NCBI GenBank assembly: GCA_010093995.1
Contig: ML992503.1
Location: 1,107,234-1,171,233, forward strand
Source: Elsinoe ampelina
Taxonomy: Eukaryota
Length of the DNA: 64,000 nt
Direction of reading: 5' to 3'
Positions 4,830 through 25,639 of this stretch are shown piece by piece. Under the pieces are notes generated by a model. That model saw only the letters and a list, made by a program, of their open reading frames with translations. It had not been told where the DNA came from and searched no databases. The position numbers and the translations under genes are program-made. Each line of letters opens with the position of its first letter. Within the stretch, counting starts at the first letter, position 1.

Positions 4830-5147
4830 CTGTCTAGGGCGGCGTGGGAGTAGAGTCTCGGCCGGCTCCGCGAGCGAGACATCAGACCGTCCGAGGCCAT
4901 AGCTGATCCAAACACCAACATGTTAGAACCTCGAGCATCAATCTCACTCCCTCGCAATTCCTCGGAGATCAATATCCCGAGAAGCGGAGAGCTATATGAC
5001 TCACACTTTCCTTCCCATGCAAAAGGTAGAAGACTTCCCCAATCAAAGCCCCTTCGAACCACCTTTCCTCTACCTGCTATCACAAGACCCTATACCATTC
5101 TCGGCAACACCTCCACCACCACCCGCTCCCATTCCCACCATCCGAAA

Positions 5148-6401
5148 ATGGCCGACGTCCACGGCGCCCTCCCCCTCCGCGCTCGCCATGACCTCCGCCG
5201 CTCCATCGCCACCACATCAGACCCTCTCATCTCCGCCCTCCCCAAAATCGAACTCCACATCCACATAGAAGGCACCCTCACCCCGGCCCTGAAATGGAAA
5301 TTCTCCCAACGCAACGCCCAAGTCCTCCGGCACCCACGCACGGGCATCCCCTTCTCCTCTCTGGAAGAACTCCAGGACTCACACGACAGCTTCAAAGCGC
5401 TGTCCGACACCACCACAGGGGAAGGGCCCGGGGACGGGGACGGGGGAGGGAGCAGGCAGACCAATGCCGAGGAAACATTGTCCTTTTTCGAAGCTTATTA
5501 CGGCGGGTTTGAAGTCCTCAGGACGGAGCAGGATTACTTTGACCTCGCCATGCATTACTTCGAAAAGGCAGCGGGGATGAAGGTGAGGTATTGTGAGTTG
5601 TTCTTTGATCCGCAGGGACATACGAGGACGGGGGTCGGGTGGGGGACGATGATGGGGGGGTTCAGGAGGGCGCAGGTGGAGGCCGAGGGGAGGTTGGGGG
5701 TGAGTTTGTCTTTGCCATTGGGGTGGGGGAGGACAGGGGATGCTGATGGTGTGTAGGTTAAGAGTGCGTGGATCATGTGTTTCCTTAGGGATGAGTCGGT
5801 GGAGTCAGCGAGGGAGCATTACGAGGCGGCGCTGGAGTATCGGGATATGGTTGTGGGCATTGGGCTGGACTCGAATGAGGATCAGCGACCGCCGTTGATG
5901 TTTGAGGAGATCTTTCGGCGAGCGAGGGAGGATGGGTTTAGACTGACGGCGCATTGCGATGTTGGAAAGGCGTACCCAGTCGAGAATTGTAGGCAGGTGA
6001 TCTGCTCGCTCGGCAAGACTGGGGCTGATCGAATTGACCACGGTCTGAACGTAGTGGAGGACAGTGAGCTGATGGAAATGCTGAGAAAGAAGGAAATGGG
6101 CATGACGATCTGTCCCTGGTCTTACATTCGACATCAGCCGCTTGATGAAGTATTCCAGCGAATACGCCAGCTTTTCGATGCCGGTATCTTGATCTCGATC
6201 GCCAGCGATGACCCGACATTCATGGAAGACACATGGATATTGGAAAACCTGCTTGTGGTGATGAAGTTTTGCAACTTAACTGATCAGGATCTTATCAGGC
6301 TGACCGAGAATGCTATTCGCACTTGCTGGGCTTCCGAAGCGGTCAAGAAGGAGATCATGGACGAATTGGAAGACGTCAAGAAGGAATGTATAGACTCATG
6401 A
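5148..6401 (+). CDS. Adenine/adenosine deaminase family amidohydrolase (2 exons)
   Basis: Motifs LPKIELHIHIEGTL, YCELFFDPQGH, GIGLDSNE, DRIDHG and ASDDP. One intron at 5700-5756. Confidence 0.9.
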
Positions 6402-6824
6402 TGGCGATATTGGGCAAATGGAAGATCGAATTACTGTGCGGTGCTTTCCAATTACCGGTCTCTGAGGAGAAGGCCAAAAGATGTCGGCCCTTAAGAAATA
6501 GACTGTTGGTAATGAGCTCAAACTTGAAAGTCCTGCAAGCTGAATCTTCCTTGGGTAAGCTTCACCCATTAGTATCCACCTCTGATGGAGCTTTATGTTA
6601 GTAGAGGCCCGAGTGCGAGGTCATGACAGATACGATCCCCGAGTCATCCTGTATGTTGAATCACATAAGATCTGATATCTGAACTTACGTTAAAGATAGA
6701 AAGGTACGGTTGACTAAACTCACGCTTTGTGACCGAACGAGTAAGATATGGTCCACCGTACTTGCATGCAACTTTTCTCTACAATCCACAAGCCCCTCAC
6801 GATCCGTCCCTCCTCAAGACCACT

Positions 6825-7784
6825 ATGCCTCACAAACATACCCGGCGACCCGGCGCCTCGTCCGCAAAGGACTTTGACCTCCCTCCCACCACCACAGCGC
6901 GTCCACTAGCGGTCGGCAAAAAGTCAAAGGGCAACGCCTCGGAGCAAAAAGGAAAGAAACGAAAGCGGGGCAACGACGATGACACGCCTCGCGAGTTCAA
7001 GCGGCTCATGGAGCTGCAGAAGCACATGGCCATGCGCAAAGGGGCCAATGGCAGCGCCAGCACCAGGCCAGGAGGTGTAGAGGACATGCCGCGGCAGAAG
7101 AAGGCGACGGGGAAAGGCAAGCCTCGGGCGAAGGAGGCCTCAGTCAAGCTCGAAGACGCAGAGGAAGTCGAGAACAAAAAAGATCTGAAGAAGCCCGCAG
7201 AGCCCAAGCGATCCAATGGTCTCGACGACCCAGCCTGGGGCCAGCGCGGACCCATGAGCAAAGACATACCCGCTCTGAAGGAGAAATCCTCCCGCCTCCA
7301 GCGCAAGATCGAGAAGAAAGTCGCGACTTGGCGGACCGAGGACGAGCGGTTGCGGAAGAAGCGCGAGGAGGACGTGGCCAAGTACAGGGAGCAGGAGGAG
7401 GAGCGCATCTCTGCCCTGCTGGAGAAGAGCGGGATGAGTAGCGCAGCGATCGAGGATCCGGATCTGTTGAAGCAGTTGGGTTTGGACGATGGGGCGGATG
7501 ATCTTGCGGAGAAGGAAGTGCTGGCGAGGCGAGGGAAGAAGAAGAGGAAGGGGAAGGAGGAGGACGATTTTGCTGTGTTGAAGGAGAAGAGGGAGAGGCC
7601 GAAGGGGTTGCATGATGTGGTGCAAGCGCCGCCAGAGTTGAAGAAGTTGAAAGATAGATTCGGGACAAAGAAGGCTGTTGTGAGTGGGGAGGGAGGGTTG
7701 AAGAGGCAGGCAGATCTGCAGGAGGCGAGGATGGAGGTCATTAAGCGGTACAGAGAGATGATGGGACGGAAGAAAGATATGTGA
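6825..7784 (+). CDS. Conserved basic Lys-rich nuclear protein (UPF0653/CCDC137-like)
   Basis: MPHKHTRR start, FDLPP, DDDTPREFKRLM, LHDVVQAPPEL and a C-terminal R.EVIKRYREMM, matching this fungal family as I recall it. Confidence 0.7.
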   Translation: MPHKHTRRPGASSAKDFDLPPTTTARPLAVGKKSKGNASEQKGKKRKRGNDDDTPREFKRLMELQKHMAMRKGANGSASTRPGGVEDMPRQKKATGKGKPRAKEASVKLEDAEEVENKKDLKKPAEPKRSNGLDDPAWGQRGPMSKDIPALKEKSSRLQRKIEKKVATWRTEDERLRKKREEDVAKYREQEEERISALLEKSGMSSAAIEDPDLLKQLGLDDGADDLAEKEVLARRGKKKRKGKEEDDFAVLKEKRERPKGLHDVVQAPPELKKLKDRFGTKKAVVSGEGGLKRQADLQEARMEVIKRYREMMGRKKDM

Positions 7785-7980: not shown

Positions 7981-10900
7981 TCATGACATCTCCCCCTCCT
8001 CCCTTCTCACCCTCCCATCCTTTCCCAACGTCGGCATCCTCTCCCCCTCCCACTCCTCCCCCGGCCACCCCTGCCTCGTCGTCCCCTCCTCCACCTCATC
8101 CCCTGCCATGACAAGCGTATGCTCCATCAACACCGCCCCCTTTCCCATCTTCGCCCCACTCAACAACCGACTCCCACTCCTCAAGACGCTCCCCTCGCCC
8201 ACATGCAACTCATTCAAATCAAAAACCCCTCTACTGTTAATATGCCCCACCAAACTCGCATCATCCACCACCACCCTATCTCCCAACGTCAACAAATCCG
8301 GCTCCGTGAACAAACAACTCGGACTCCCCGAGGCAAAAAGCGCCGTGTCCTTGCCAATCCTCGCCCCCAACGCCCGGAAATACAGCACCATATAATGCGT
8401 CCCCGTCAACAAACCCAACACCCCCTGGCCCCCATAGCACTGCCTCCTGATCCTCTCGACGGTGAGGAAAACCTGCCACCGCTGGCAATACGACGACTTG
8501 TCCCAGTCGTGATTCCCTGCTTTCCTCCGGCCGAGCAGGGCCCATTTCGCGGCGATGACGATGGCGAGAGCCAGCACCGCGAGGAATGTCTGCAGGATGG
8601 AGATGGAGAGGGTGAAGAGGGCGTAGATGAGGAAAGGGCGGTACGTGTCGGTCGGGAGGACGAGGGAGCCGAAGTAGGGGAGGAGGAAGGAGAGGATTTG
8701 GACGGATGTCGTGGTGGCGACGTTCCAGTAGAAGGCGGTGAAGGTGGTGAGGAAGGTGGAGTAGAGGATTATGCTGGGGAGGCGGAGGACGTGGTAGGGT
8801 GCTTGGTGGAGGTAGAAGGCGCGCCCGAAGGGGGTGGTCGGGGTGGGGGTCTCGGTGGGGAGGGCGGTGGTGGTGCTGAAGCCACCCTTGGCTGGTGTTG
8901 AAGGGCCGGTTTCAAGAGAGGAAGAGTCGAGCTCCACTGTGGCGACGACGGTGAGGCCTTTTTCCAAGTTGAACTTGACGTCGGCGACGGTGCTCTGCTT
9001 GCGGGGGTCGGAGAGACAGACGGCTTCTCCCCCTCGACTACCAACCCAGACGGTGCCTGGCTCGTAGTGTTTGTCGCGTCGGCTGAGAGCACCGCTACCA
9101 AAGACGGTCTTCCCTTCCACCGTCGTACCTGGGAGAAGAACGACGCGGTCTGAGATCATGGCTCCATTGCCGACTTTGACAATGTGGCTACCATAGCCAT
9201 CAGAAGTTTGGATATATGACCGAGATCCGAAGACCACATCGTCGCCAATGTCCAGCAAGTCAAAGTCCTGTACAGCCGGTCCAGTACCGGGCCAGTAGAC
9301 TCTCTGTCCAACCTTGGCACCAAATGCACGGTAGATCTTCGATGTGACTTCGTAGTGTGCGCCAAAAAGGTCGATCAGCTTGTGGAATTGCGGCATAGGA
9401 ATGAGATGCCTGAGTATAGATTGGCGAAGCTTGTAAAGCTGGCTCCTACCGGTGACCACACCTGGCTTTTGCTTGCCCAGGGTGACATCCAGAAGCTTCT
9501 TGACTAGGAAGACAGCCACGAACCACGCCATGGGTCCGCAGTAAGCATGCAACACCAGCGCAAGGTAATGAAATCCGATCCTGTAAGGCTCAGCGAACCA
9601 GTGAATTATGGCGAGAACGTGATCAGGCGATGGCTTGGGCTCGAGCATGACGATGGGTACCAGCCCACCGATCCATGGCCCTGACCTGACGAGATTGACA
9701 ATGGCCGATAATGGGTAGCTGATGATCAGATCGAGGAAGAAGTTGGCGGCTGGCACCTTGCTCGAGAGTAGGTTGCGATTGCTCTCATCAGCATCTTGAG
9801 TTTCCCAGCTTGAAGAGTTTGGTCCGATGCAGACACTGTGCGGGACCTTTGTCCCAGGCGCGACAATGGAGTTGAGTCCTACACTTGCGTTCTTTCCAAT
9901 CGTGGTACGGGCAAGATACATCGAGGTGTCCTTCTCCCCTGCGAAGGCTCGGAAGATACACTTGTCAAGACTCGCACCGTCACCAATTTCAAGCAGGTCG
10001 TATTCACCGAGGGTCGCGGCTCTTGCGATTGTGACATTCTTCCCGATCTTTGCTCCAAGCAGGCGATAGTACAAGACCAGACCAGAGTTTGACATGCCAA
10101 AGTGGCCTTTGCCACTGATCGCTATGATCTTCTGGACTAACCACCATCGGGTGTGGTAGAAGCCCCACATTGGGTAGAGGCCTTCGCGGTAACGACCAAT
10201 CAAGATCCATTTTGAGAGGATGGCGAGGAGAGGGGCAATCAGGAAGGTAACCATACGACCAATTGCCATGCTGACGATCAAATTGAAGATGCGGCCAGCA
10301 AGATATGGAGTGGTCGGCCAGAACTGCGACTCAGCGAGCAGGTACATGAAGATAGTCCAGGTGAGAGCACGCTTCATAGGGTAGACCAGAACAATAGGGA
10401 TCAGCTGGACGAGCAGGAGGAACGGATTGGTCGAGCTGCAACGCTGCTTGATGATCGGCTGGCTATCAGCCTTGCGGATAAGAACCGGCTCCTTGCATTC
10501 TCCTGCACCAGTGGCTTTCTCGATGTACTTTGCGATAGCCGAGATCTGTCCGCACGTGAAAAGGAGGTCAACAGGAATCCTGGTCTTGGATTCGCGGCGA
10601 AGCTCAGAGAGTAGCTTGCCGGCGCGGAGTGAGTCGCCGCCCATCTCGAAGAAGTCGGAGTCACGGCCAAGCTTCGACAGGGGACAGGCGAGGACTTGCG
10701 CAAAGAGCGTGGCGATCCTGGACTCCATCGTACTCATATCGCTCTTAGTTGACCCTGTATCTGACGTATCCTTGATCATGCAGTCAAGCTCGAAGTGGTC
10801 GATATCCCCGGCGGCGTCTACTGGGAGCTCGTATTCCAGCAGGTGGACAGTATTTGGCATGTCCAAGTCATCCAGTTTTCCATGGAGAAGTGTTCTTGCA

Positions 10901-13083
10901 TCAGACGTCGAGGGATACTGCAGATCAGGTGGGGAGTCCATAGCTGGAGCAAGGACACCTTCGGAGTAGCCATCAATGACGGATGGACGGACGTAGACAT
11001 CATAGTTCGCTCCCGCTACTTTGAAAAGCTCGCGCGCCAGGGTATCAAGGTCTGAAGTGCAGGGTGATTGGGCGATCTTCTCGCTGAGCGGCGTGTTTGG
11101 CGGCGGGCAGACAGCCTGGAAATGACGGTCCGCCAGCAGTACATCGTCCGAAAGGTCCGGCATATCCATTCGCTGAGCGAGCTTGATCCGAAGAATCTTG
11201 TTGTTGTTCTTTGGAAGGTCGTCCATGAAGACAAGCACCTGAGGCCACTTTACTTGACTGAGCGACTCCTTCACGGCTTCCTGAACGGTCTTGATGCACA
11301 CCTTTCGCGCGCCAATTGGGGTGACTACGACAAGTCCAACGACTTCTTGCAGCACGTCGTGTGGCATCGAGAAGGCCAAGACCGCACTGATCCGTCCTTC
11401 GACGGGCGAGCCAGAGGTTTGTGATGCCGACAGGACAGCTTCTTCAACTTCGAACGGTGAGATGAGCTCGCCGCCGCGATTGATGACCTCTTTGCTGCGA
11501 CCAGTGACGAAGAGGTAGCCGTTATCGTCGAGGTAGCCCATATCACCAGTGCGAAACCAATTCGAAGCAGTGAAAGGAGATCTGTCCGTAGAGCCATTCG
11601 ACTTCAGATAACCTGCAAAGAGCGGGGCACCCCTGACAGCAATCTCGCCCACCACACCCGCGCAGACCACATTGTCATTCTCATCAAGGATCCCGAGATC
11701 AGGGCCAACACTGACGCCAGATGTGCCAGACCTGTCCAGCTTGTAGTCAAGGGGCGGACTGGAGATGGGCATACACTCCGTCATGCCATAACTAGGTAGT
11801 ACCGTGCATCCAAAGGTGTCGCGAAGGTTGCATGCGAGTGACGGAAGCAGACCACCGGCAGCATTGCAAATGAGGCGCATGTTGCATTTCTCCAGAGCGT
11901 CCTGACGGTACTGTGATGTTTCCAGGATCATCTGATGCATCGTTGGAGAGGCATAGTACCAGGTCGGGGAGTGATCCTCGACAATGTCCCAGAAGGAGTT
12001 GGCATCGAAAGCTGCGCAGCAGATTGTGGAACCTCCTGCCATGATCGGAGCGAACAGATTACGGACAATACCGCCGACGTGAAAAAGTGGCATCATGTTG
12101 AGACATACGTCGTCCTGTTTGAGACCCCAGGATTCGATCACGAATGCCACGCCAGCGATGAGGGAGTGGAGGGTGATAGGTACTGTCTTCTTTGTCCCGG
12201 ATGTACCGCTAGTGAAGAGCATTATAGCGACGTCGTTTGGTCCATTGGGCGTAGGACGATGGGAATCGATGTCGGGCGATGGACGGTCCACACCCTCGAC
12301 ACAATGCATGCTGAAAGTCATGTCATGTTCTTGCTGCAAGACCACAACCTTGACCCCGGCATCCGTGATCCAGGAACCGTCGAGTCCAAGTCGCTTGATA
12401 TCCGCTCGGGTGACAAAGACGACACTCGCCTCGGACTGCGCAAGATCACTCCGGAACTGCTCCGCTCCACTTGCTGTAGACAGTGGACATGCTGTGTAGT
12501 AGGTGGTGGTCGCCAGTATGGCCAGACCGAGTAGTGGACCATTCGGTAGCGCAAGAGCGATCTTGGTCTGCGACGGGCCTGTGCAAAGATCGGGCAAGCG
12601 GAAGGTGTGCATGAACGTGGCGAGGCGGTCGTGAGTGAGGGCCGCTTGCGAATGGCTGTCCTTTAGTGCTGGACCAGTGGTGCCCGGGAGAAGGTCTACC
12701 AGGTCGGCGTAAGTTGACATGACCTGCTGCTGCACATGATTTGCAAAATCGGTCTCTCTTGAAGGGCGGCTTGCTTTGACATCCTCTGGTAGATGCTTCC
12801 AAAGTCGCGCAAAGCAGCATTGTACATCGAAGACTGGCCATGGTCCAGGTACGAATGTGAGCAGTGTTGAAAGAATACTTAGAGGAGCGATGGAAGGCTT
12901 GCCAGTAAGAGGTATGCTGATCAATATCCGCTTCTTCTCGAGATCGATGTCGGCTGATGATAGCACTGAGTCAACGAATGTAAAGCAGGTATTCTTCTCG
13001 TCTTGAGTGAGATCCGTCGGTAAGTCAATGTATACGTTACGGTCGTGAAAATGAATGCGGTCCATGGTATGGAAAGACGCCAT
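7981..13083 (-). CDS. Membrane-bound single-module NRPS-like polymer synthetase (A-T-TM/beta-helix x3; Pls/PosA architecture), probable poly(beta-L-malate) synthetase homologue
   Basis: Intronless 1700-aa ORF. Adenylation motifs FTSGTSGTKK, SYGMTE, FRTGDMG, GRSKEVINRGGE and LPKNNNK. Carrier domain DFFEMGGDSL (Ser818, nt 10630-10632). Three R-x-[LF]-GA[KR][IV]G hexapeptide-repeat domains are separated by hydrophobic TM segments. Confidence 0.85.
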   Translation of the reverse strand: MASFHTMDRIHFHDRNVYIDLPTDLTQDEKNTCFTFVDSVLSSADIDLEKKRILISIPLTGKPSIAPLSILSTLLTFVPGPWPVFDVQCCFARLWKHLPEDVKASRPSRETDFANHVQQQVMSTYADLVDLLPGTTGPALKDSHSQAALTHDRLATFMHTFRLPDLCTGPSQTKIALALPNGPLLGLAILATTTYYTACPLSTASGAEQFRSDLAQSEASVVFVTRADIKRLGLDGSWITDAGVKVVVLQQEHDMTFSMHCVEGVDRPSPDIDSHRPTPNGPNDVAIMLFTSGTSGTKKTVPITLHSLIAGVAFVIESWGLKQDDVCLNMMPLFHVGGIVRNLFAPIMAGGSTICCAAFDANSFWDIVEDHSPTWYYASPTMHQMILETSQYRQDALEKCNMRLICNAAGGLLPSLACNLRDTFGCTVLPSYGMTECMPISSPPLDYKLDRSGTSGVSVGPDLGILDENDNVVCAGVVGEIAVRGAPLFAGYLKSNGSTDRSPFTASNWFRTGDMGYLDDNGYLFVTGRSKEVINRGGELISPFEVEEAVLSASQTSGSPVEGRISAVLAFSMPHDVLQEVVGLVVVTPIGARKVCIKTVQEAVKESLSQVKWPQVLVFMDDLPKNNNKILRIKLAQRMDMPDLSDDVLLADRHFQAVCPPPNTPLSEKIAQSPCTSDLDTLARELFKVAGANYDVYVRPSVIDGYSEGVLAPAMDSPPDLQYPSTSDARTLLHGKLDDLDMPNTVHLLEYELPVDAAGDIDHFELDCMIKDTSDTGSTKSDMSTMESRIATLFAQVLACPLSKLGRDSDFFEMGGDSLRAGKLLSELRRESKTRIPVDLLFTCGQISAIAKYIEKATGAGECKEPVLIRKADSQPIIKQRCSSTNPFLLLVQLIPIVLVYPMKRALTWTIFMYLLAESQFWPTTPYLAGRIFNLIVSMAIGRMVTFLIAPLLAILSKWILIGRYREGLYPMWGFYHTRWWLVQKIIAISGKGHFGMSNSGLVLYYRLLGAKIGKNVTIARAATLGEYDLLEIGDGASLDKCIFRAFAGEKDTSMYLARTTIGKNASVGLNSIVAPGTKVPHSVCIGPNSSSWETQDADESNRNLLSSKVPAANFFLDLIISYPLSAIVNLVRSGPWIGGLVPIVMLEPKPSPDHVLAIIHWFAEPYRIGFHYLALVLHAYCGPMAWFVAVFLVKKLLDVTLGKQKPGVVTGRSQLYKLRQSILRHLIPMPQFHKLIDLFGAHYEVTSKIYRAFGAKVGQRVYWPGTGPAVQDFDLLDIGDDVVFGSRSYIQTSDGYGSHIVKVGNGAMISDRVVLLPGTTVEGKTVFGSGALSRRDKHYEPGTVWVGSRGGEAVCLSDPRKQSTVADVKFNLEKGLTVVATVELDSSSLETGPSTPAKGGFSTTTALPTETPTPTTPFGRAFYLHQAPYHVLRLPSIILYSTFLTTFTAFYWNVATTTSVQILSFLLPYFGSLVLPTDTYRPFLIYALFTLSISILQTFLAVLALAIVIAAKWALLGRRKAGNHDWDKSSYCQRWQVFLTVERIRRQCYGGQGVLGLLTGTHYMVLYFRALGARIGKDTALFASGSPSCLFTEPDLLTLGDRVVVDDASLVGHINSRGVFDLNELHVGEGSVLRSGSRLLSGAKMGKGAVLMEHTLVMAGDEVEEGTTRQGWPGEEWEGERMPTLGKDGRVRREEGEMS

Positions 13084-15503
13084 GGTGACTAACAGAACGC
13101 TGCAGAAGAGAACAAAAGTGGTGGAAAGTGCCTACCTCACACGCGAGCGAGTGCCCATATGGATGTTATAGCGCAAGAGACCGTTGTGCGAACGCAGCTG
13201 CGGTATCTCCCTAGGAGGCCGTTGTTTGACAGGGCGGCTCGAACGGATCTAAGCAAGATCAAGGTTGAAATTTTGCGCCATGGACGGTCAGAGCGACCCG
13301 TTCAGTGGCGCTTGCACCAGGTCTATCGAAGCCTGGCATGCAAAGGATAGGACTGGTGTGGACCCCCAAGATGGTTAATGGAAACGCAGCATGTGCCACA
13401 TGGCCAACGAAAGGATGTTTCTTGAAACATGTACCTTTTTGGCTCGAACAAGTGTAAGCAGTCCAGAAGCATCGGACCAGTGCGTGGTTAGTCTTCCAAT
13501 GGCGGACTAGATAGACCCAGGAGCTTGGACAGTCAAGCGATAGTGCATACACCCCTATGAGTGTCTGCCGTTGTGAGGACTGCTTGGTACAGGCTCGAAG
13601 TAACCTGTACAAAGTTAAGGTGAATCCGTCCGAACCAGGCATGGTCGTTTGCAATCATACATCCATGGTAGGAAGAATGAGATGACGGTATGATGGCACT
13701 ATGAGTGGTTGAGGCCACTAGTTTGAGGTGCAATTGTAGGCGATTCGCCGGGTGCCAATAGATATCGTGGCTGGCGGAAACGCCGCAGATTTCCCCTGCA
13801 AGGCTGATGCAGGCGTGTCGAGAGCATGGTGAATGTCAGGGCGACCGTTTTGAAGCCAATGCATGAGCGTTCTGCCGGACGTGACGTGTACCGAGCATGG
13901 AACAGACGGTGAGTGCGACTGTGATCAGAGGCCTGGCGCGGCGTTTGTGGTCCAGAGTATGTCGGAAAGTCTGTAGCCAAAAGGCTCGCGAGAGTCCATT
14001 TCGATAGCGGAGTTGAGCATTGCTGCAATGGGGCGGAGATCACGATGACACTCGTAGTACTGTTATCGGCTCAATGATGGCAGTCGAGAGGTCACAGAAA
14101 AGGGTGAAGTCCCGGAGAGATAAATTAAGAGGCGGTGCTATTGCTTGCACTTGGAGCCGAGCCTTTCCCTTTTCGGAGCCACCTCCGGAGGCTCGTCCCT
14201 TATCCTCAGCGTGGGATATTCTCGAACGTCCATGGACATGGAATAATCCCTGGGAGATGTCGTGCAACGACAAGCGATTTCTTTCAAAGGCCCACATCCC
14301 ACGAAATGGTGCAAGCCTCAAACATTGGAGCCATCACCGGAAGAACTCCGCCGACCCAGAGATGCCCCTATCGTGGATCTTTTCGTACACTAGCATGAAC
14401 TCTACACTATCTCTGGGTTTGCAGATCCTGGTCACGTATCTCTGACATGAACACTACCAGGTCAATGCCGTATCTTGGCGGCTCGTGATATCGAGGGCAA
14501 CCCGGAGCGGAGGAGACTTCAGCTAGCCTGCATCCCGTCATGCCCAATGCAAACAGTGCAGACCAGAAGCGTCGGGCACCTGCATGAGATGGTACCCCTT
14601 TTTGGTTGTGGGTGTATCCCCATTCGGAACATGCCTCATATCAGAGACGCAGGAGATCGTCACAGATGGTGGCACATGTGTCGATGCATGGCAGCCACAT
14701 GATATCGAATCCGTTGAGATGATCCTGCCAGCATCCATTATGCATTGCTTCACTAGTTGCCATTATATCATTCTTGGCAGTAGTGGGTATGTCGTCTCAG
14801 AGCTGGCCTGACAGACGTCAAGTCTGATCAAGCCGTCGCCCATGAGAAATGAGCCTTCCGGCCACTATCGTTTACTCTTGCTTCTCTGTCCACACTTGAG
14901 CACCATTTCCTTTTGGACGGTGACAAGCTCTAGCTAATTCGAAGCGAACATGGCACGTCGACGCGTTTGACACAGTGCATACGAGTATAAGCCGTCGAAG
15001 AACGCGCGCGTTTCAACAGCGAAGACCTCTCCCAAACTCAAGCGTTGGAGCCACACTGGTACGCAATGTCCCCGAGACCCTGGTGTGAGTATTGACATAC
15101 CGTGGTGGAAACGACGGGGATGCATCCAACCCCATGAGACTCAGTGGTGCTAGGTCCTGATTGATGGACCACACATCCAGAATTGGAGACCAACGTCAAG
15201 TACAAGTAGTTCAGCGACCAGAAGCGCGCTGCAGATGATGATATTGGGAAGTCATGAACAGAATTGTAGAGAGGAAGATTTGGACGTGTGTGAAATTTCA
15301 ACACCCCGGACAATGGCACGTGACATGCAACAAAGTGCAAACGATGCAAACTCCCCACGCGACGTCATGCCAAACATCTCCAGCTCATTCCGCACCCCAA
15401 ACCACAACATCTACACTCACACCCCCCTCCCTCACCAAGCTCCTCGACACCTCAATGCTCTAATCATCCCGCCAATCCAACACCTCCCTTTCCCCCCACC
15501 AAG

Positions 15504-16208
15504 ATGCCACCCAAACGCCGCCCCCCTCCCCCCAACACCACCGCCAAACGCGCCCCCGTCCCCCGCCCCTCCCGCCTCGCCAAAGAACACGGCGCCACCG
15601 CCGCCCAAGAGTCCGAAATCAAAGAAGCCTACCTCCTCTTCGCCGTCGCCGACCCGGACGCCTCCACCGCCTCGGGTAAACGCAAAGCCAACGACGTCGA
15701 CGGCACGGTGATACGCACTGGGGACGTGCGACGATGTCTGATCGCGCTCAACGCGCCGAGTAGTAGGGAGGAGATGGCGGAGATACTGGAGACGTTGGAT
15801 CCCGAGGGGGTTGGGGTGGTGGGGTACGAGCATTTTTTCGCGGTGGGGGTGATGAAGGTGCAGAGCCGGGGGGAGGAGGGGGAGGGGGAGGATGAGGGCG
15901 AGAGGGATGGGTATGAGGATGAGGGGGAGGAGGAGGATGTGGGGGTTCGAGGCAAGGGGAGGGCGAAAGGGAAGGGGAGGCAGGGGCGGGCGGAGGCGGA
16001 GATCGAGACGGCGTTCAAGTTGTTTACGAGGGATGAGTCGGAGCAGATCACGTTGGCGCATTTAAGGAGGGTCGCGAAGGAGTTGAGGGAGGATATTGAT
16101 GATAAGACGTTGAAGGATATGATCAGGGAGGCGAATGGGGGTGGGAAGGCGGGGGTCGGGAAGGAGGAGTTTGGGGATGTGATGAGGAGGGCGGGTGTTT
16201 TTGGTTGA
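15504..16208 (+). CDS. Centrin/calmodulin-like EF-hand protein with an acidic insert
   Basis: EIKEAYLLF, GDVRRCLIAL, ETLDPEGVGVVGYEHF, AFKLFTRDESEQITLAHLRRVAKELREDIDDKTLKDMIREAN and EEFGDVMRRAG give a centrin-like helix/EF pattern with degenerate loops. Confidence 0.8.
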   Translation: MPPKRRPPPPNTTAKRAPVPRPSRLAKEHGATAAQESEIKEAYLLFAVADPDASTASGKRKANDVDGTVIRTGDVRRCLIALNAPSSREEMAEILETLDPEGVGVVGYEHFFAVGVMKVQSRGEEGEGEDEGERDGYEDEGEEEDVGVRGKGRAKGKGRQGRAEAEIETAFKLFTRDESEQITLAHLRRVAKELREDIDDKTLKDMIREANGGGKAGVGKEEFGDVMRRAGVFG

Positions 16209-16633: not shown

Positions 16634-19600
16634 CTAATCACCAAGCACGCTCTCCACCTCCGCCTCAGGCTCCTCCTCTGCAACCTCCTCCTGCTCCTCC
16701 TCACCATCAACATCATCCTCCAACTCCTCGTCCTCACTCTCGCTCTCCACGACCAGCACCTCCTTCTTCTTCTCCACTTTCGGCTTCCCCTCCTTCTTCC
16801 CCTTCTTCTTCTCCTCCAGCAGCTTGATCACCTCCTTGTAATTCGCCCCAAGCTTCATCTTGTTCACCTCCAATCTCTTCCGTACAGGCTTCTCATCCAC
16901 CACGCCAGCGAGTATAGCCATGACCAGCTTGACGCCAAACTCACACAGGCGCTGTTCCGCAGTCAAGGCGCGATGCATATGTCTCGCTTCCCGGGCACCT
17001 TCTTCTTCCTCTTCGTCCTCGTCGCTGCTCTCCTCCGCGTCTAGGTGGACTTCGGCGTCGGATTCCTCGGGATCCTTGTCGAGCTCGTCTTCATCCATCG
17101 GGTCTGCGTCTACGGGGCGTTCCTCTGGCTTTTTGTTCTTGCGCGCCTTGCGGCCTTCTTTGACCTTCTCGATGTGTCTCCCTGTGACGCGAGCGAAGCG
17201 TTGCTCCTGTGCGCCAAAGACTTTGAGGCCGACAGTGGTGACGTCTGGCGAGACGTCTAGTGCGAGAGCTAGAAAGTCTTCTCGTCCTTTCTGTTTTGGC
17301 GTGACCCCGCGGAGAGAGGCGCCGGCGATATGAGCGTCTAGCAGGATGAGGGAAATGTCGGTGGCGATGGGAGCAGAAGGCAGGCGAGAAGCAAGGACTT
17401 CGATGAGAGCAGAGATGAAGGCGTCCCGGCTGGTGGCGAGGGAGTCGATTGCAGAATCAGGTGGGTTGCTTTCCTCGAGGCTGGTCCGCAGATTCGAAAG
17501 TGACCACAGAGTGTAGAAGCCAACAACTCGAGCAGCCGTGAGGGACAGAGTATCTTCTGCTAGAGCGTAAGACCTGTCTTCTTGAACGTCTGGCTCCAAG
17601 ACCGCTCGACGGATGAGACTGGTGAGGAGATCCAGAGCTGGCCCTGATGCTGCTGTGCTCTGTCGCTGTGATTTGGTGGTTGCTGCCGTTGCCACATCTA
17701 GATGAGGCACCGGGTTGGAAATCGCCGCCAGACGTTCAATGCGTGCGATAGTCTTCGTGAGACCATCCACAACTTTGGAAGTCAAGTTACCGCGCACTGT
17801 GAGGTTCTTGCTGCCGACAAGTCTCCGGAAGGTTTCGAGGGTCTCATCCCATAATTCGTCAATCTTCTCCTCCGTCACATCACCGAGGTCGGTATATGCC
17901 TTGGCTCGGAGAAGCGCTCGCGAAGCTTCATTCAGGACTTCATCGCTGCCATGGGAAAGGAATTGCTTCTCGATATCATCAAGAAGATTCTTGTATGTCG
18001 ACGGATCTTGTTGGAAATCCGAGAATGCGGACAGACTGACAATTCGTTCTAGGCGCAATACAGCAAGGACAGTCTGGGGAGAGTCGCCGAATCGCTTGAG
18101 GAGCTGGGGAATGAGAGTCGTGATCTCGCGTGCGGTGGACTCCTGCTCGTCCGCCAGATCATCACGTTGTCTCTTCGTCTTCTTGCCTTTCTTCTCGGCC
18201 GCCGAATCAACCAGATTGCTCACGTGCTGTCGGATGGACACGTTGAGAATCTCCAGCAAAATGAACTCTTCACGATCGCTAAGCTTGCAGGAGGTCCGGA
18301 GCTGAGAGCCAATATCCCCCGATACCCCATTTTGGCCGCCGTCTGAAGTGTCGTACAGCAGGTACTTTGCGAGTGTGTCCCAGTCTTTTACAATGTCCAT
18401 ACTTGGATACAGGGTCTCGGCCACAATGATGAATCGGGATTCCAGCTCCTCGGCATGCAGCCTGTAATTATCGCCAGGTCCTCTAGTAGCATGTTTTGAC
18501 ATTTCAGGGTCGAATTGATCGTAGATGTCCAGCACCTCGACCAAGCACTTCAGATGTAACCATGGCAGGCCAGGCTGCTCCGCGCTCTCTGCTGAATCGC
18601 CCAGCTCTTCAGTAACAGCTTCCTCCCCGCCAAGCTCTTCTACTTTACCTTCGTAGATCTCTTGCACACTCGAGGAGAAGAAATGCACAACAGCTTTGCG
18701 TACTCGCGATTCGGAGTCAAAGATGAGACGACCCACAGCATCGATGTCGTCCGGCTCCAAGAAGCCTGCTTGCCGCAAAAGGTCCAGTAGTTCTACTGCT
18801 GAGGCTCTGACAGTTGGCTCGCTGTCCAGTGTTGCCATTTCCACCATGCGGGCCCTGAATCGCTCGGTGAAGGTTTTGAGACCAGCCAGCCGGTCCTTCT
18901 TCTCATAGAGCCGCCTCAGCTGCTTGACCACCTCGAAACGAGCTGGCCAATGCGAATCTGAAAGCACCCATCCAAGGTATCGCAGATGTGCACCGTCGAA
19001 GAACACGTCGGGATACGCCAGGATCCAGTCTCCGAGTGCCTGGGCGCAATCTACACGGATCTTCGGGTCTACATCACGGTATCTGTGAATAAAAACCGTG
19101 TCGAACCAATCCTGGAGAATCGCATCGAGAGCTGCTTGTTTCTGTTGTGCTGCCGTCGCGTCCTGCAGTAGACCGCTTGCGCGCTTCTTGTTCGCCCCCT
19201 TGCCCTTGCTCATATTCTCGCTTTGCCTTTGAGCTGTTGCAGCTGCACCGGCCAGGTCCTTTCCAATCTCGGTGAGAGCAGTCATGACCGCGAGTGATGC
19301 TACTGTCGCAGTGTGCCGAAATGGTCGATTCTGAGCGCTGGTCATGGTAGTCAACCACACGTGGAGATTGTCAATCAGCTCAGGACTGGTGAAGAGCGCT
19401 CCCGTCGCGTCAATCGTCTTGACCAGCACGCCGAAGAATTCTACCAGTGTAGCTTTGAGTGTGGTCGCGAACTTCGTCTTTGCTATGATCGGATAATCGC
19501 TTACGTTTTGCTGGAGTCGCGTCAGTCAAAAGCGATGCGCCGCATATACTGCCACACGTACTGTTTGGAACTCATCCTGTAGATCGCTGACCTTGGTGGT

Positions 19601-20557: not shown

Positions 20558-22410
20558 TCAGACAGTACCAGCTGGCTGCTCCATCCCGAAACGGACATGA
20601 TCATCAGCCACTCGTCTTCTGAACATGCCCAGCTCCTTCATCAGATCATCCACATCCATCTGCCATTCATGCGGTGCCGACTCATAGCCGTCATCCTCCT
20701 CACTGGCATATTCCGTCTCCGCGTACTCGGTTTCATCATCAGTGGCGTAGTAGTTCTCCTTCTCCTCCGCCTTGGGTATCACGATCGGGTTCTTCAGTTC
20801 TCCTAAAGCCAGTGCAAGATGTCTCCTCAAGCTGTCAACCTCGTTCTGCAAACTCTCAGCATGTGGTCGGAGATCGTCCAGCTCCTGTGTGAGAGCTCGT
20901 ATCTTCACGTCGCTGACGGACTTGGACTCCTCCATGGCTCGCTGCATCTTGAGTACCTCTCGCTGGTAGTTCTCCAGTTCTTCCGTGGCTCGGTCAGCCT
21001 CGTCTCGCTTCCGAGTCGCTGCAGTATTCATACAGAGCTGAAGACTTCGAATTGTCTCTTGCATCTCTAGAATCTTTGCATCACGCTCGGCAGCGGAGAC
21101 GGCGTCTTGATTGACATGGGCACGAGTGCGAATCTTCTTGGCTTGATCGGCATAGCGTAGTGTCGAGAGAGTCTCTTCGTAGTCAGTCGGGCTGATGCAA
21201 GCTACCATGGCCGTCTTGGAATTGCCTCCTAGACTGTCCTTGAGCAGCCACGTGAGAACTGAATCTCTGTACGGCACCACATCCAGTCTTCGCTTGGTCT
21301 GGTTTGCTGGTCCCTTGGCCTGAAGTGCACGTTGACGTTTCGGATCTGCCAAAGCGGCTATGACTCGACCAAGCGTCGTCAGCGACTGATTGATGTTGCT
21401 ACCCTCTTTCAGGCGAGCACCTGTCGCCTCTGTGCGATTGGCTCTCTCTGATCCAGCAAGGTCGACCAATCTCATGCGCGCCAACCTCTCAATGGTGCTG
21501 TCTGATGCGATGTCGTGCTGAATTTGTTTCAGGGTCAAGGTGAAGACGGCATGGGAGCGAGAAGAGGTGTCGTTCATCTTTGTCGAAGCTGTAGTACGAT
21601 TCTGATCGCCAGCCTTCATGATTTTCTCCACTTCAGCATAGCTCTTGACCGGGCTGTCGGTAAGACCTTGCACATAGACACCGTCTGCTTTACTCTCGCG
21701 GATCTTCAGGTAGGTCGCTGGGTTCGTCCTCGGTGTGAGCAGGTCCCGGACGTGCTCATTATAGACTTCAAAGTATGAGACGTGAACGTTGTATGTTATG
21801 TTCCCGTTCTGCTCATCGTTGATCCTCTCGAAGAGACCTTCGCATGTGCGCGGTATCAGACCAGGTTGCTCTGGTGTTCCCATCATCGTGTAAGATTTGC
21901 CTGATCCTGTCTGTCCGTATGCAAATATGCATGTGTGGTATCCGTCAAAGTTGTGGTCCAAGAACTCCTCACCGAATGAACCATACACATCTTTTTGGTG
22001 TGCATAGTGTCCGGATTCTATGTCGTGCGACCAGAACGATTTGTCGAACGTAAAGCTCTTTTCTTCGTAGACCTTGCGTGATGCTTTTGCTTCTGTGACA
22101 CTGACAGGGGGTGGGTGAAGGGTCGTCTGTTGAGTGACTGGGTTCATTTCGACGATACATGGCGCAGATCGATCCAGCTCTGGAGAATGTAAGTGGTATG
22201 CAGGCGAATGGACGATGTGGACATACCTCGCTGAAGAAACTTGCGCACTCGCACGACGACCTTGACGCTGTTCCCTCCATCAGGAGTCGTCGGCCTCGAG
22301 TCAATCATGTCCGATTCTCTTGCGCGCATCGAAGGTGTTGAAGCTGTACTGACATAAGGGTATCTGGCAGCGGGGGCTCCGCGGTTCGCGGCAATCTCGG
22401 TCAACGCCAT
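20558..22410 (-). CDS. Short fungal kinesin-3 motor (UncB/Nkin3-like, no FHA/PH tail seen) (2 exons)
   Basis: SVKVVVRVR, FTFDKSFWS, P-loop GQTGSGKS, NDTSSRSH, DLAGSER and VPYRDSVLTWLLKDSLGGNSKT, then a short coiled-coil tail. Intron at 22180-22226. Confidence 0.92.
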
Positions 22411-23772
22411 TTCCTCAAGAGTTTCGATTACATCCACAACGGTTTGCTGAGCGCGGATCCTGAGAAAGGTATACATGGACTCATTATCATTGCGACCCAG
22501 TGTAACGACTCAGCCAATGTCAGTGCGCATCTCGATCAGCCACTAATAGTGTGCGCTGTCGCTCATCATCCCGAATTCGCGCCCAAACAAGTGCGTCATA
22601 GCGTTGCGAGGGGCAACGCTTCACGCAAAGGCCGAGGCAGTCAAAGTGACAGCTCTATACGTTCCCGCCTGTCACGCTGTGCCATGGATTCAAAAATGTT
22701 TGATCAATCAAGCATCCTCAGGCTTTACGCTCTGTAAATATTGAGGGGGCGCGCACGGCTCCAGCAACTTGGATTCTCGTTCAATGAGCTCTGCCAACAT
22801 CTAGCAATCTCAGCTGGGCCCCCACCGGTATCGTGAAATAGGTCGCGCACATGGCAGGCTATAGTACCCAAGTCACTAGCGAAATCGATCCGGAGATGGT
22901 ACTGTCAGCGATCAGGGTCCCATGCGATATTGATTTATCCACGCAAGTTGGTGCCGAAGCCGACATAAGCCTGCACAATCGGCTCGATCGGATCTCGTAG
23001 GTCTCTTGGGACGCCCTCTCACGAGATTTACCAACCTGTGGTCCGCCATGACGCTGCCGGATGAAGTCGCAAGCGTGACAACGTAGACCAGGCATCTACG
23101 TACCATCGCAGGCAAGAGATGCCTACCTCTCGTCCTGGTATCGAGATGTCGAGGCATCTTAGCCAACCCGAGTTTGTGACTGCTATTCGACTTGACCCTA
23201 ACAGCAAGGATTAGGAGCATCCGCGATAGGACCGAACGAATATGCTGCCCTGACCATTCGAAGAGAGAGCCACCTCAATGATCACCACGTGCCTCTACCT
23301 GCATCGTGACCCTGACGGTCGCCGTGAGAGCATCTGCGTCAAGCCCTGCGGCAAGTCCAACATGTCTCTGGTTCCAGATCTTGGAAATGAGCTTTTCCTT
23401 CATGGCTTGAGGCTTGTCAGCGCCGTCAAAAATGCTTCGTGGTGACGAACCAATTACAGGAGCGCCCTCACTCGACTTCGGAGAGCCTTCCCACCTTCGA
23501 CTCGAGGCAGTTTCTGGGGACAGGCGTCTGTCTGGATGCGAGCGGGGCAACCTCTGGCTAAAGACGTTCTTGCGGGGTGCCCTAGGTATTCTCCTCAGTG
23601 GTATGAAATCTCACAACATTATCCATATCAACCGGACTATGCAGCTTCTGAAATGAGCTGACCATGGTTCGTGTCCCAGGCAAGATGGACTATGGCTAGA
23701 TAAATATCCTGGCTATGGCCACCAAGGCAACGCCGTTCATTCACACTCTCCAGCCACCATCATCACTCCGAT

Positions 23773-25310
23773 ATGGCACCTCTCATCCCCGTCCTTCTAG
23801 GTCTCACCCTTGGCCTCGGAGCTCGCGCAACTCCACCTCCACCACCAGCTCACCCATCGCCACCTCCTGCTTCGGATGCCCTGACTATCACAGTGAAGCC
23901 CCAGGTCCAATACCAGCAGATTGACGGCATTGGTGTCTCGGAGGCTTTCCAGCGCTCCAATGTCCTATATGGCCTCAACGAACCTTACCGCTCTGAGGTT
24001 CTGGATCTACTCTTCACTGCGAAGGGGGCCGGTCTTACCATCCTGCGCAATGGCATCGGTTCTTCCGTCAGCAACCCATGGGACTTGATGGCGTCCATTG
24101 CTCCCGTAGCCCCTGCGTCAAACAGCAGCGCTGTAAGTTAAACGTGAATTTCATTGCACATGTTGCATCAGAGTACTGACATGAACGGCCAGCTCAACTT
24201 CATCCCTCTGCCCAACGACGACCAACACCAGGTCTGGCTTGCGAAGCAGGCAAAAGCCCGTGGCACCAACTATTTCTACGCCGATGCATGGTCTGCCGAC
24301 CCATACATGAAGACCAACAGTAAGTGATTCGAATGCATTGACGATAATTAACTCAATGCGAACCAGACAACGAGAACTTCGGCGGTAATCTCTGTGGTGT
24401 CAGGAACACCAGCTGTGCTACTGGCGACTGGCGTCAATCTTACGCCAGCAAGTTGGTCAGGTTCCTTCAGCTCTACAAAGCTCAGGGCATCACCTATGAC
24501 TACGTTGGTTTCCTGAACGAGCCAGACTTCAACGCTAGCTATGCCGGCATGCTGTCCGACGGCCTGCAGGCGGCCGACTTCATTGAGGTCCTCGCGCCAG
24601 CTTTGAAGAAGGCAGGCCTCCGTACCGAAATCGCTTGCTGCGAAGGCACTGGCTGGGATATCTCCCGCCAATTGCTTGAAGGCGTTCAATCCGCCGGGCA
24701 GGAGAAGAACATTGGTCTTGTCACCAGTCACGGTTATAGCTCTGCTCCTGGTGCTCCTCTCAACACCTCAAAGAAGGTCTGGCAAACTGAGTGGTCGACT
24801 TTTGACGCCACAAACTACGATTGGTACTCTACCGGCAAGTCCTCAGATGGTCTTGCCTGGGCCAACAACATCCAGAAAGGCTTCCGCGACTCAAACTTGA
24901 ACGGCCACATCTACTGGTGGGGCGCTGCCAATGCGTCGGACAATGAACCTCTCATCTTCATCAACAATACAGCCGAGGTCCGCGTCACTGCCCGTCTTTG
25001 GGCTCATGCACACTTCGGTAGCAAGTTCGTCCGCAAGGACGCGCACCGCATCGAGGCGACTATTGGATCAGCCGCCCTGAACGTCTCGGCTTTCCAGAAC
25101 GTCGACAAGTCCATCTCCGTCCAGATCATCAACAATGGCAACACCCCCCAGGATGTCGTCGTGAAGGGCTTCGGCCCACGCGGAAGGATCAGCACTTTCC
25201 TTACCAACAACGCCAACAACCTGACCCGAGGCGAAGCAAGAGTAGATCCTCAGGGTGCTCGTGCCAGCATTCCTGCATTCTCCTTGCTCAGCTTCCTGTA
25301 TACTCGTTGA
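23773..25310 (+). CDS. Secreted glycoside hydrolase family 30 (probably GH30_7 xylanase-type) (3 exons)
   Basis: Signal peptide, then YQQIDGIGVSEAF, ILRNGIGS, YADAWSA, acid/base FLNEPD and nucleophile VWQTEW. Introns at 24133-24192 and 24320-24366. Confidence 0.85.
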
Positions 25311-25639
25311 GAGCTAGCAGAGGATATGGAGTGGGCATTAGATACAGTCCTGAACTTGATGTACCAATTCGACCATGATGGGCGCCGAGGAGACAATTCG
25401 CTTTTTCGTATATGCTTCCGAGTCTTGTCAGTTATTCTCCATGCCGTCTTAGCCAGTCCACTCCTTCCGCTACCTGAAAATCGTTTGAATCTCGCCTTCC
25501 GCCCTGTTTCGTGATTAGTCAGCTCGCTCGCACAGATCTGGCCAATCACAATCGATCTCTACCACCTCCATGAAGTTTCGCTGGTAGTCAAGGATATATT
25601 CCATCGAGCACTTTGGTCAGGAGTCGATCTACTCGTCGC

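Follow-up and report, generated by a model that had tools for sequence, protein, structure and literature searches.

We analysed a window of 64,000 nucleotides from Elsinoë ampelina (GenBank assembly GCA_010093995.1, contig ML992503.1, positions 1,107,234 to 1,171,233; coordinates below are those of the window), whose minus strand carries at 7981..13083 an intact gene for a protein of 1,700 residues. A first-pass annotation, made from the DNA letters alone, had proposed a stand-alone membrane synthetase of the poly(malate) type. By combining profile searches, structure prediction, alignment and phylogeny, we come with moderate confidence to a similar reading, namely that the gene encodes a membrane-bound homopolymer synthetase of the PMAs type, the Elsinoë counterpart of the Aureobasidium enzyme.

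An intact gene for a modular membrane protein

On the minus strand, 7981..13131 is a single stop-free frame with its first ATG at 13083 and its stop codon included at 7981. No intron is needed, because homologues align end to end: in database protein comparisons the closest relatives cover 96–100% of the protein, at identities of 92% (E. batatas), 82% (E. fawcettii), 76% (Sphaceloma murrayae), 75% (E. australis) and 66% (Myriangium duriaei). Translation could begin at M1, as in two Elsinoë annotations, or at M7, the equivalent of which is the start in S. murrayae and E. australis. That the gene is intact but silent or vestigial in E. ampelina we consider very unlikely, given that the open reading frame (ORF) runs for 5.1 kb without a stop, and that the protein is 92% identical to its E. 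batatas counterpart and retains every catalytic position. The E. batatas annotation KVT40_000006 lacks 13 residues of the adenylation core, including the position of Gly337 (399 of 412 aligned; window residues ~325–340); the ORF in the window is continuous across this segment, and the gap is likely a wrongly called intron.

At E ≤ 0.1, Pfam recognizes four families only, AMP-binding (residues 172–493, 3.8e-49), PP-binding (789–854, 5.7e-14), Hexapep (5.6e-10) and a weak AMP-binding_C, and, as the first-pass annotation had it, no condensation, thioesterase or reductase family. The best NCBIfam matches are the FadD7-family ligase NF004511 (1.7e-66) and TIGR02353, the Pls/PosA terminal domain (1.7e-60, 205.2 bits, in three stretches). 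All eight motifs on which the earlier architecture had been built are present: MPLFHVGG (starting at residue 331), PTWYYASPTMHQMIL (373), SYGMTE (431) and KEVINRGGELISPFEVE (531) in the adenylation domain, GGDSL at 815–819, which makes Ser818 the carrier serine as had been stated, and the hexapeptide-repeat motifs YYRLLGAKIGKNV (1005), IYRAFGAKVGQRV (1250) and YFRALGARIGKDT (1568). The features of the gene are as follows (A, adenylation; T, thiolation; TM, transmembrane helix; LbH, left-handed beta-helix; C1 to C3, the three beta-helix units; KD19, maximum Kyte–Doolittle hydropathy over 19 residues; pLDDT, predicted local distance difference test).

7981..13083, minus: whole coding sequence including the stop, 1,700 residues, intron-free, for a putative PMAs-type A-T-(TM2-LbH)x3 synthetase; single ORF, full-length homologues
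12640..13083, minus: N-terminal extension, residues 1–148, poorly conserved (35–37% identity to Aureobasidium), not assigned to a family; the solved-structure match begins at residue 149
11164..12639, minus: adenylation (ANL) domain, residues 149–640; PF00501 (3.8e-49), NF004511 (1.7e-66), oxalyl-CoA synthetases as best solved matches
within 11164..12639, minus: ANL landmarks, P-loop TSGTSGTKK (291–299), H335-V336-G337, A408-A409, G433-M434, P439 and the catalytic Lys629
10720..11163, minus: A–T linker, residues 641–788, no Pfam family, 40–43% identity to Aureobasidium
10522..10719, minus: carrier (thiolation) domain, residues 789–854; PF00550 (5.7e-14)
10630..10632, minus: codon of Ser818, the phosphopantetheine attachment site in GGDSL; Ser in 53 of 54 PMAs-type and 2 of 2 Pls-type rows
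7984..10446, minus: Pls/PosA-type terminal polymerisation domain, residues 880–1700; TIGR02353 (1.7e-60, 205 bits), AlphaFold2 model
10201..10401, minus: helix pair 1 (TM1 895–919, TM2 928–961); model, KD19 1.19 and 2.07
9754..10200, minus: C1 unit, residues 962–1110, with YYRLLGAKIGKNV and the conserved Asp1029; motif, model, alignment
9478..9741, minus: helix pair 2 (TM3 1115–1145, TM4 1166–1202); model, KD19 1.50 and 1.91
8989..9477, minus: C2 unit, residues 1203–1365, with IYRAFGAKVGQRV and the conserved Arg1252; motif, model, alignment
8851..8991, minus: Ser/Thr/Pro-rich linker, residues 1365–1411; pLDDT < 50, 17–20% identity to Aureobasidium
8533..8781, minus: helix pair 3 (TM5 1435–1471, TM6 1482–1517), ending in the conserved Lys1513; model, KD19 1.17 and 2.55
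8029..8532, minus: C3 unit, residues 1518–1685, with YFRALGARIGKDT, Glu1594 and His1614; motif, model, alignment
8242..8244, minus: codon of His1614, candidate general base

Two stretches of the soluble part are extra in the fungal proteins when compared to stand-alone oxalate-CoA ligases and bacterial Pls-type enzymes: ~120 residues at the N-terminus and an A–T linker of ~145 residues, the latter with conserved patches in the family consensus.

A terminal domain of the Pls/PosA layout

The AlphaFold2 model of residues 880–1700, computed from a 56-row alignment, has a mean pLDDT of 88.8 and a predicted template-modelling score (pTM) of 0.88, and is unreliable only in the linker 1365–1411 and the last 16 residues. 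It has six long helices arranged as three pairs, with a beta-rich unit after every pair, and thus agrees with the alternation of hexapeptide-repeat domains and membrane segments proposed from the motifs. KD19 values are at least 1.5 in four of the six helices and 1.19 and 1.17 in the other two (the soluble part of the protein peaks at 1.63), so that the membrane assignment of TM1 and TM5 comes from the model and homology and not from hydropathy. In a Foldseek search of the PDB (E ≤ 0.001), all 10 matches are left-handed beta-helix acyltransferases or their relatives, each spanning one unit (TM-score to the query at most 0.13); they include LpxD with acyl carrier protein, galactoside/maltose and serine acetyltransferases, and gamma-carbonic-anhydrase-like proteins. 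No solved Pls-type structure was found in the PDB by sequence (best E value 0.008, all small beta-helix proteins) or by fold.

As predicted, three helix pairs alternating with three left-handed beta-helix units correspond to the layout of the TIGR02353 family, which comprises the ε-poly-L-lysine synthetases Pls (Streptomyces) and Epls (Epichloë) and the δ-poly-L-ornithine synthetase PosA (Acinetobacter), each with A and T domains followed by a domain of ~730–820 residues. The published AlphaFold model of PosA has the same helix-pair/beta-helix layout (PMC10522769), and it is from that paper, not from our own model coordinates, that we take the pseudo-threefold packing of the beta-helix units. 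The Epichloë poly-lysine enzyme was named Epls, with VibA as its transcription factor (PMC7179176, accessible text). Judged by its profile match, the terminal domain of the window protein is homologous to this family yet outside its curated bounds.

Conserved polar residues of the putative polymerisation site

We aligned 75 prokaryotic Pls-type terminal domains, from the longest ORF (at least 1,150 residues) of 79 loci, with 17 of the PMAs type. By BLAST of their A domains, 75 of 76 bacterial and archaeal ORFs are Pls-type and one is PMAs-type. At 27 positions at least 90% of both groups have the same residue, mostly Gly, Pro, Trp or Leu. The conserved polar residues are as follows.

His1614: 75 of 75 Pls-type, 17 of 17 PMAs-type
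Glu1594: 74 of 75 Pls-type, 17 of 17 PMAs-type
Lys1513: 74 of 75 Pls-type, 17 of 17 PMAs-type
Arg1252: 70 of 75 Pls-type, 17 of 17 PMAs-type
Asp1029: 69 of 75 Pls-type, 17 of 17 PMAs-type
Lys958: 69 of 75 Pls-type, 16 of 17 PMAs-type

Because hexapeptide acyltransferases generally employ a histidine as general base, His1614 in C3 is our candidate for the base that would activate the incoming hydroxyl. The window protein has His1614, Glu1594, Lys1513, Asp1029, Arg1252 and a Trp–Trp pair in common with the poly-lysine and poly-ornithine synthetases, which suggests one active-site design for both esters and isopeptides.

An adenylation domain for an acid that is probably neither oxalate nor an amino acid

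The first-pass annotation had likened the A domain to oxalate-CoA ligases rather than to amino-acid A domains, and its best solved-structure matches bear this out: the oxalyl-CoA synthetases LsOCS (6qjz, 1.5e-65), AAE3 (5ie0, 2.3e-58) and Pcs60 (8aff, 1.5e-49), with malonyl-CoA synthetases next. ANL core motifs and the catalytic Lys are common to all of these. The oxalate pocket of AAE3 is described in the available text of PMC8905533 as Val215-His216, Cys288-Ser289, Ala313-Met314, His319 and Lys500, with Ser289 and His319 (numbered as in AtAAE3) specific to oxalate enzymes, and we mapped it by hand via a phmmer alignment to 6qjz, whose numbering agrees with that paper. The equivalents in the window protein are Val336-Gly337, Ala408-Ala409, Gly433-Met434, Pro439 and Lys629; three of the eight residues are the same, Ala409 and Pro439 stand where the oxalate enzymes have their specific Ser and His, and three bulky residues have given way to smaller ones. 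Such a pocket fits a substrate bigger than oxalate. Oxalate itself we reject as a substrate on the strength of the two replacements, which are common to the family (Ala409 in 45 of 54 and Pro439 in 52 of 54 PMAs-type rows).

The same replacements bear on the idea that the protein is just a CoA ligase for oxalate (or malonate) to which a membrane anchor has been added, as its best solved matches and the database names of relatives ('Oxalate--CoA ligase', 'peroxisomal-coenzyme A synthetase') might suggest. We judge this highly unlikely, since in addition to the altered pocket the family as a whole has retained, under selection, both a carrier domain whose Ser is intact and a conserved Pls-type domain of 820 residues. 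Whereas AAE3 and Pcs60 are stand-alone soluble proteins of ~510–545 residues, the A domain of the window protein is fused to carrier and polymerisation domains and would be expected to thioesterify its own carrier, not CoA. The names given to the related genes are probably wrong.

A cationic polyamino-acid synthetase of the Pls/Epls/PosA kind, making poly-lysine, poly-ornithine or the like, would account for the overall architecture, the TIGR02353 match (1.7e-60) and the common His/Glu/Lys set, but the A domain makes it extremely improbable. Positions 335–336 are H-V, as in acyl-CoA ligases, and not the Phe-Asp of two bacterial Pls-type rows, which we take to be the alpha-amino-binding motif of amino-acid A domains. 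TIGR01733 (amino-acid adenylation) is not among the best 25 of 116 NCBIfam matches of the window protein, whereas both Pls-type controls match it at ~1e-130, and the median score of Pls-type A domains is 41 bits with the window A domain compared to 446 among themselves. In the tree described below, a branch of 3.0 changes per site separates the two groups. The window A domain comes from the acyl-CoA-ligase and not the amino-acid branch, the expected bond would be an ester and not an isopeptide, and the N-terminus and the A–T linker are longer than in the Pls-type enzymes. Of the 'polyester or polyamide' that the first-pass annotation had left as alternatives, the polyester is favoured; with H-V in place of the F-D motif, a polyamide would be a very improbable product.

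At all 10 checked positions (the pocket, His335 and Ser818) the window protein is identical to both Aureobasidium rows, and each position is kept in 43–53 of the 54 PMAs-type rows (lowest at Val336, with 43 and Ile in 9 more). As the pocket-equivalent positions are identical to those of Aureobasidium and near-invariant across the family, the enzyme should activate the same acid as the Aureobasidium enzyme, neither an amino acid nor oxalate. Two proteins on a long branch inside the Sordariomycete clade, P0162 and P0166, have Glu or Asp in place of Lys629 and Asp in place of His335, and P0166 has Glu in place of the carrier Ser; with A domains that look degenerate, they may be inactive or repurposed paralogues.

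Relationship to the Aureobasidium polymalate synthetase

PMAs of A. melanogenum ATCC 62921 (QHD40385.1, 5,049 bp) is described in the accessible text of three reports (PMC9210645, PMC11286673, PMC11905612) as having A-like, T and C-like domains and six transmembrane regions and no thioesterase. According to the same text, its deletion abolishes polymalate in Aureobasidium, it is induced via Crz1, and complementation brought back about one third of production (the last in PMC9210645). The window protein has this architecture: A-like and T domains, a C-like membrane domain with six transmembrane regions, no thioesterase and about the same length (~1,690 residues), with no tailoring genes needed, in an organism from another order (Myriangiales-like as opposed to Dothideales).

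Aureobasidium proteins of the same architecture (1,688–1,690 residues) are 56–57% identical to the window protein over 98–99% of its length. The clusters that hold them have 126 and 52 members, among which are proteins of A. pullulans, A. melanogenum and A. subglaciale. Identity is highest in the A C-terminal subdomain (72–74%), followed by the C3 unit (66–67%), the A core (65–67%), C2 (57–59%), C1 (57–58%) and T (53–56%), and drops to 17–43% in the linkers.

To place the gene, we built a quick IQ-TREE phylogeny of the terminal domain from 56 rows, chosen from 120 and 150 listed proteins and three prokaryotic ORFs (803 of 821 columns), with the Shimodaira–Hasegawa-like approximate likelihood ratio test (SH-aLRT) as its only support measure. 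The window protein groups with E. batatas (100, starred) within five Elsinoë/Sphaceloma rows (99, starred), which are joined by Myriangium (97, starred) and by one further row to form a 7-row clade (100, starred). This Elsinoë/Myriangium clade is sister (99, starred) to a 4-row clade holding the Aureobasidium rows, with the Pls-type outgroups beyond the branch of 3.0 changes per site. Because this placement agrees with the accepted relationship between Myriangiales and Dothideales, the gene looks vertically inherited and orthologous to the Aureobasidium gene.

Breadth of the family

With the terminal domain as query, HMMER finds 2,464 cluster representatives at E ≤ 0.001, 1,213 at ≤ 1e-10 and 334 at ≤ 1e-30. 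Named relatives at 46–52% identity come from Dothideomycetes, Sordariomycetes, Lecanoromycetes and Orbiliomycetes and from the chytrids Geranomyces and Thoreauomyces. Ten deep representatives were looked up, among them one EukProt transcriptome (Artemidia motanka), one from MMETSP and one cluster with a TARA metagenome member, and ESM Atlas matches are confined to the Ascomycota cluster of the protein itself and to bacterial clusters that are Pls-like. The sole PMAs-type A domain among the 76 prokaryotic ORFs is that of Novosphingobium percolationis (L001:3520-8112, plus strand), a bacterial and shorter protein (1,531 residues) with an acid-type A domain (FadD7/oxalate-ligase-like), a T domain and a Pls-type terminal domain; aligned over 1,591 columns, it shares 33% identity with the window protein and agrees with it at 10 of the 10 checked positions. 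From these searches, the PMAs-type family is known and widely conserved, in Pezizomycotina, chytrids, marine protists and one Novosphingobium, and is not a lineage-specific novelty. The suggestion that the product might be unknown for this lineage holds only as an absence of reports in the literature searched.

Two placements in the tree stand apart from taxonomy. The chytrid homologues P0025, P0035 and P0040 (Geranomyces, Thoreauomyces), at 46–52% identity equal to or closer than the Sordariomycete ones, form a clade (100, starred) among Pezizomycotina lineages, with adjoining forks without resolution; gene transfer or slow evolution could explain this. Away from their own classes, P0051 (Xylariomycetidae sp.) and P0091 (Dactylellina haptotyla) sit with rows of the Capnodiales type (Hortaea, Polychaeton; 91, unstarred).

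How the enzyme might work, and what weighs for and against

In the proposed mechanism, the N-terminal ANL domain would adenylate a small carboxylic acid, most likely L-malate, by means of Lys629, after which the phosphopantetheine arm that the carrier domain bears at Ser818 would receive the acyl group. The C-terminal domain, three left-handed beta-helix units on six membrane helices with the conserved polar residues His1614, Glu1594 and Lys1513, would, round after round, join the thioester to a hydroxyl, either that of the next unit or that of the growing chain. Because an even number of membrane helices precedes each beta-helix unit, the catalytic parts would all lie on the A/T (cytosolic) side. 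The polyester would be released without a thioesterase, and the polymer would have to exit either alongside the helix bundle or through it.

The poly(malate)-type reading of the first-pass annotation is thus supported by the 56–57% identity, the sister placement and a PMAs of the same architecture (PMC11905612, PMC9210645, PMC11286673, in their accessible parts), and the enzyme is a probable poly(β-L-malate) synthetase. Several observations weigh against it. The functional evidence for Aureobasidium PMAs in the accessible text of PMC9210645, PMC11286673 and PMC11905612 is genetic only, with no in vitro adenylation or loading data there, and the Elsinoë protein is known here from sequence and predicted structure alone. 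QHD40385.1 is not among the listed members of the Aureobasidium clusters (15 of 126 and 15 of 52), and our comparisons use Aureobasidium proteins that have its architecture; we infer that it corresponds to these from architecture, length (1,682 compared to 1,688–1,690 residues) and genus. The TIGR02353 score of 205.2 bits is below the curated cut-off of 423.1, whereas two bacterial controls reach 625.7 and 603.9. The Crz1-type site GNGGCKCA was not found in the upstream region (13084-15323), and the literature searched yielded no report linking Elsinoë with polymalic acid or polymalate. Finally, the family occurs in many fungi not known as polymalate producers, which means that either the polymer has been overlooked or the general product of the family differs.

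This last point leads to a variant in which the enzyme class is the same but the chemistry is not, that is, a different small hydroxy or dicarboxylic acid is used, or the acyl group on the carrier is transferred to a non-self acceptor such as a lipid or wall polymer; the Elsinoë product would then be something other than poly(β-L-malate). Such chemistry is possible, though we think it unlikely. It would suit the occurrence of the family, at 46–52% identity, in Sordariomycetes, Lecanoromycetes, Orbiliomycetes and chytrids, and also in marine protist transcriptomes and metagenomes, sources from which no polymalate is known; the lack of in vitro substrate proof in the accessible text of PMC9210645, PMC11286673 and PMC11905612; and the return of just one third of production on complementation (PMC9210645). 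It is countered by pocket-equivalent positions that are near-invariant across the family and identical to Aureobasidium, and by the loss of polymalate on deleting the Aureobasidium gene (same three reports, accessible text).

Neighbourhood and upstream region

The first-pass annotation had placed the gene outside any obvious cluster. We scanned with Pfam the 22 ORFs of at least 130 residues between 1 and 32.4 kb of the window, of which 10 have matches, and found no typical secondary-metabolism, transporter or regulator family among them; in this interval the synthetase gene lies amid housekeeping genes and not in a biosynthetic cluster. The surrounding features (genes assigned by Pfam) are as follows.

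4854-6398, plus: adenosine deaminase
13084..15323, no strand: upstream intergenic region of ~2.2 kb, shared with the divergent EF-hand ORF
15324-16205, plus: EF-hand protein, divergent from the synthetase gene
16637-19525, minus: cohesin SCC3
20561-22279, minus: kinesin
23704-25307, plus: GH30/59 hydrolase
25574-29389, plus: SpoU methylase
30301-32384, plus: MAP65/Ase1

A Lys/Glu-rich open frame of 356 codons without a Pfam match (6714-7781, plus) runs towards the 3' end of the synthetase gene and ends ~200 bases short of the stop codon of that gene. In the upstream region CAGCCAC, one of the two Crz1 motifs in the available text on PMAs, occurs twice (13767-13773, minus; 14692-14698, plus), a count that does not clearly exceed the ~0.9 expected at window-wide density. 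Across the whole window and both strands, CAGCCAC occurs 25 times, a number that none of 100 dinucleotide-preserving shuffles attains (11.0 ± 3.4), and GNGGCKCA is rarer than in shuffles (12 compared to 24.0 ± 4.9).

Implications

In the reports available to us, polymalate synthetase has until now been tied to one yeast genus, and by genetics only. If, as it appears, this enzyme and its pocket recur in a lineage of crop pathogens and in a great variety of other organisms, biochemists would have many natural variants to work with; the intron-free Elsinoë gene also offers a clean template for heterologous expression.

Polymalate is in demand both as a biodegradable carrier for drugs and as a source of malic acid, and our reading predicts its production well outside Aureobasidium. 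The acid-activating, PMAs-type branch of the Pls superfamily combines throughout a near-invariant substrate pocket with the His/Glu/Lys set of the polyamide synthetases, and on this basis we tentatively suggest, as a possibility still open to doubt, that the branch is ancient and very widespread and that, if all its members make poly(β-L-malate), this polyester is a common, overlooked secreted or membrane-associated polymer. If so, polymalate might serve the scab pathogen Elsinoë at the surface of its host, where it could for instance bind calcium or shield the fungus.

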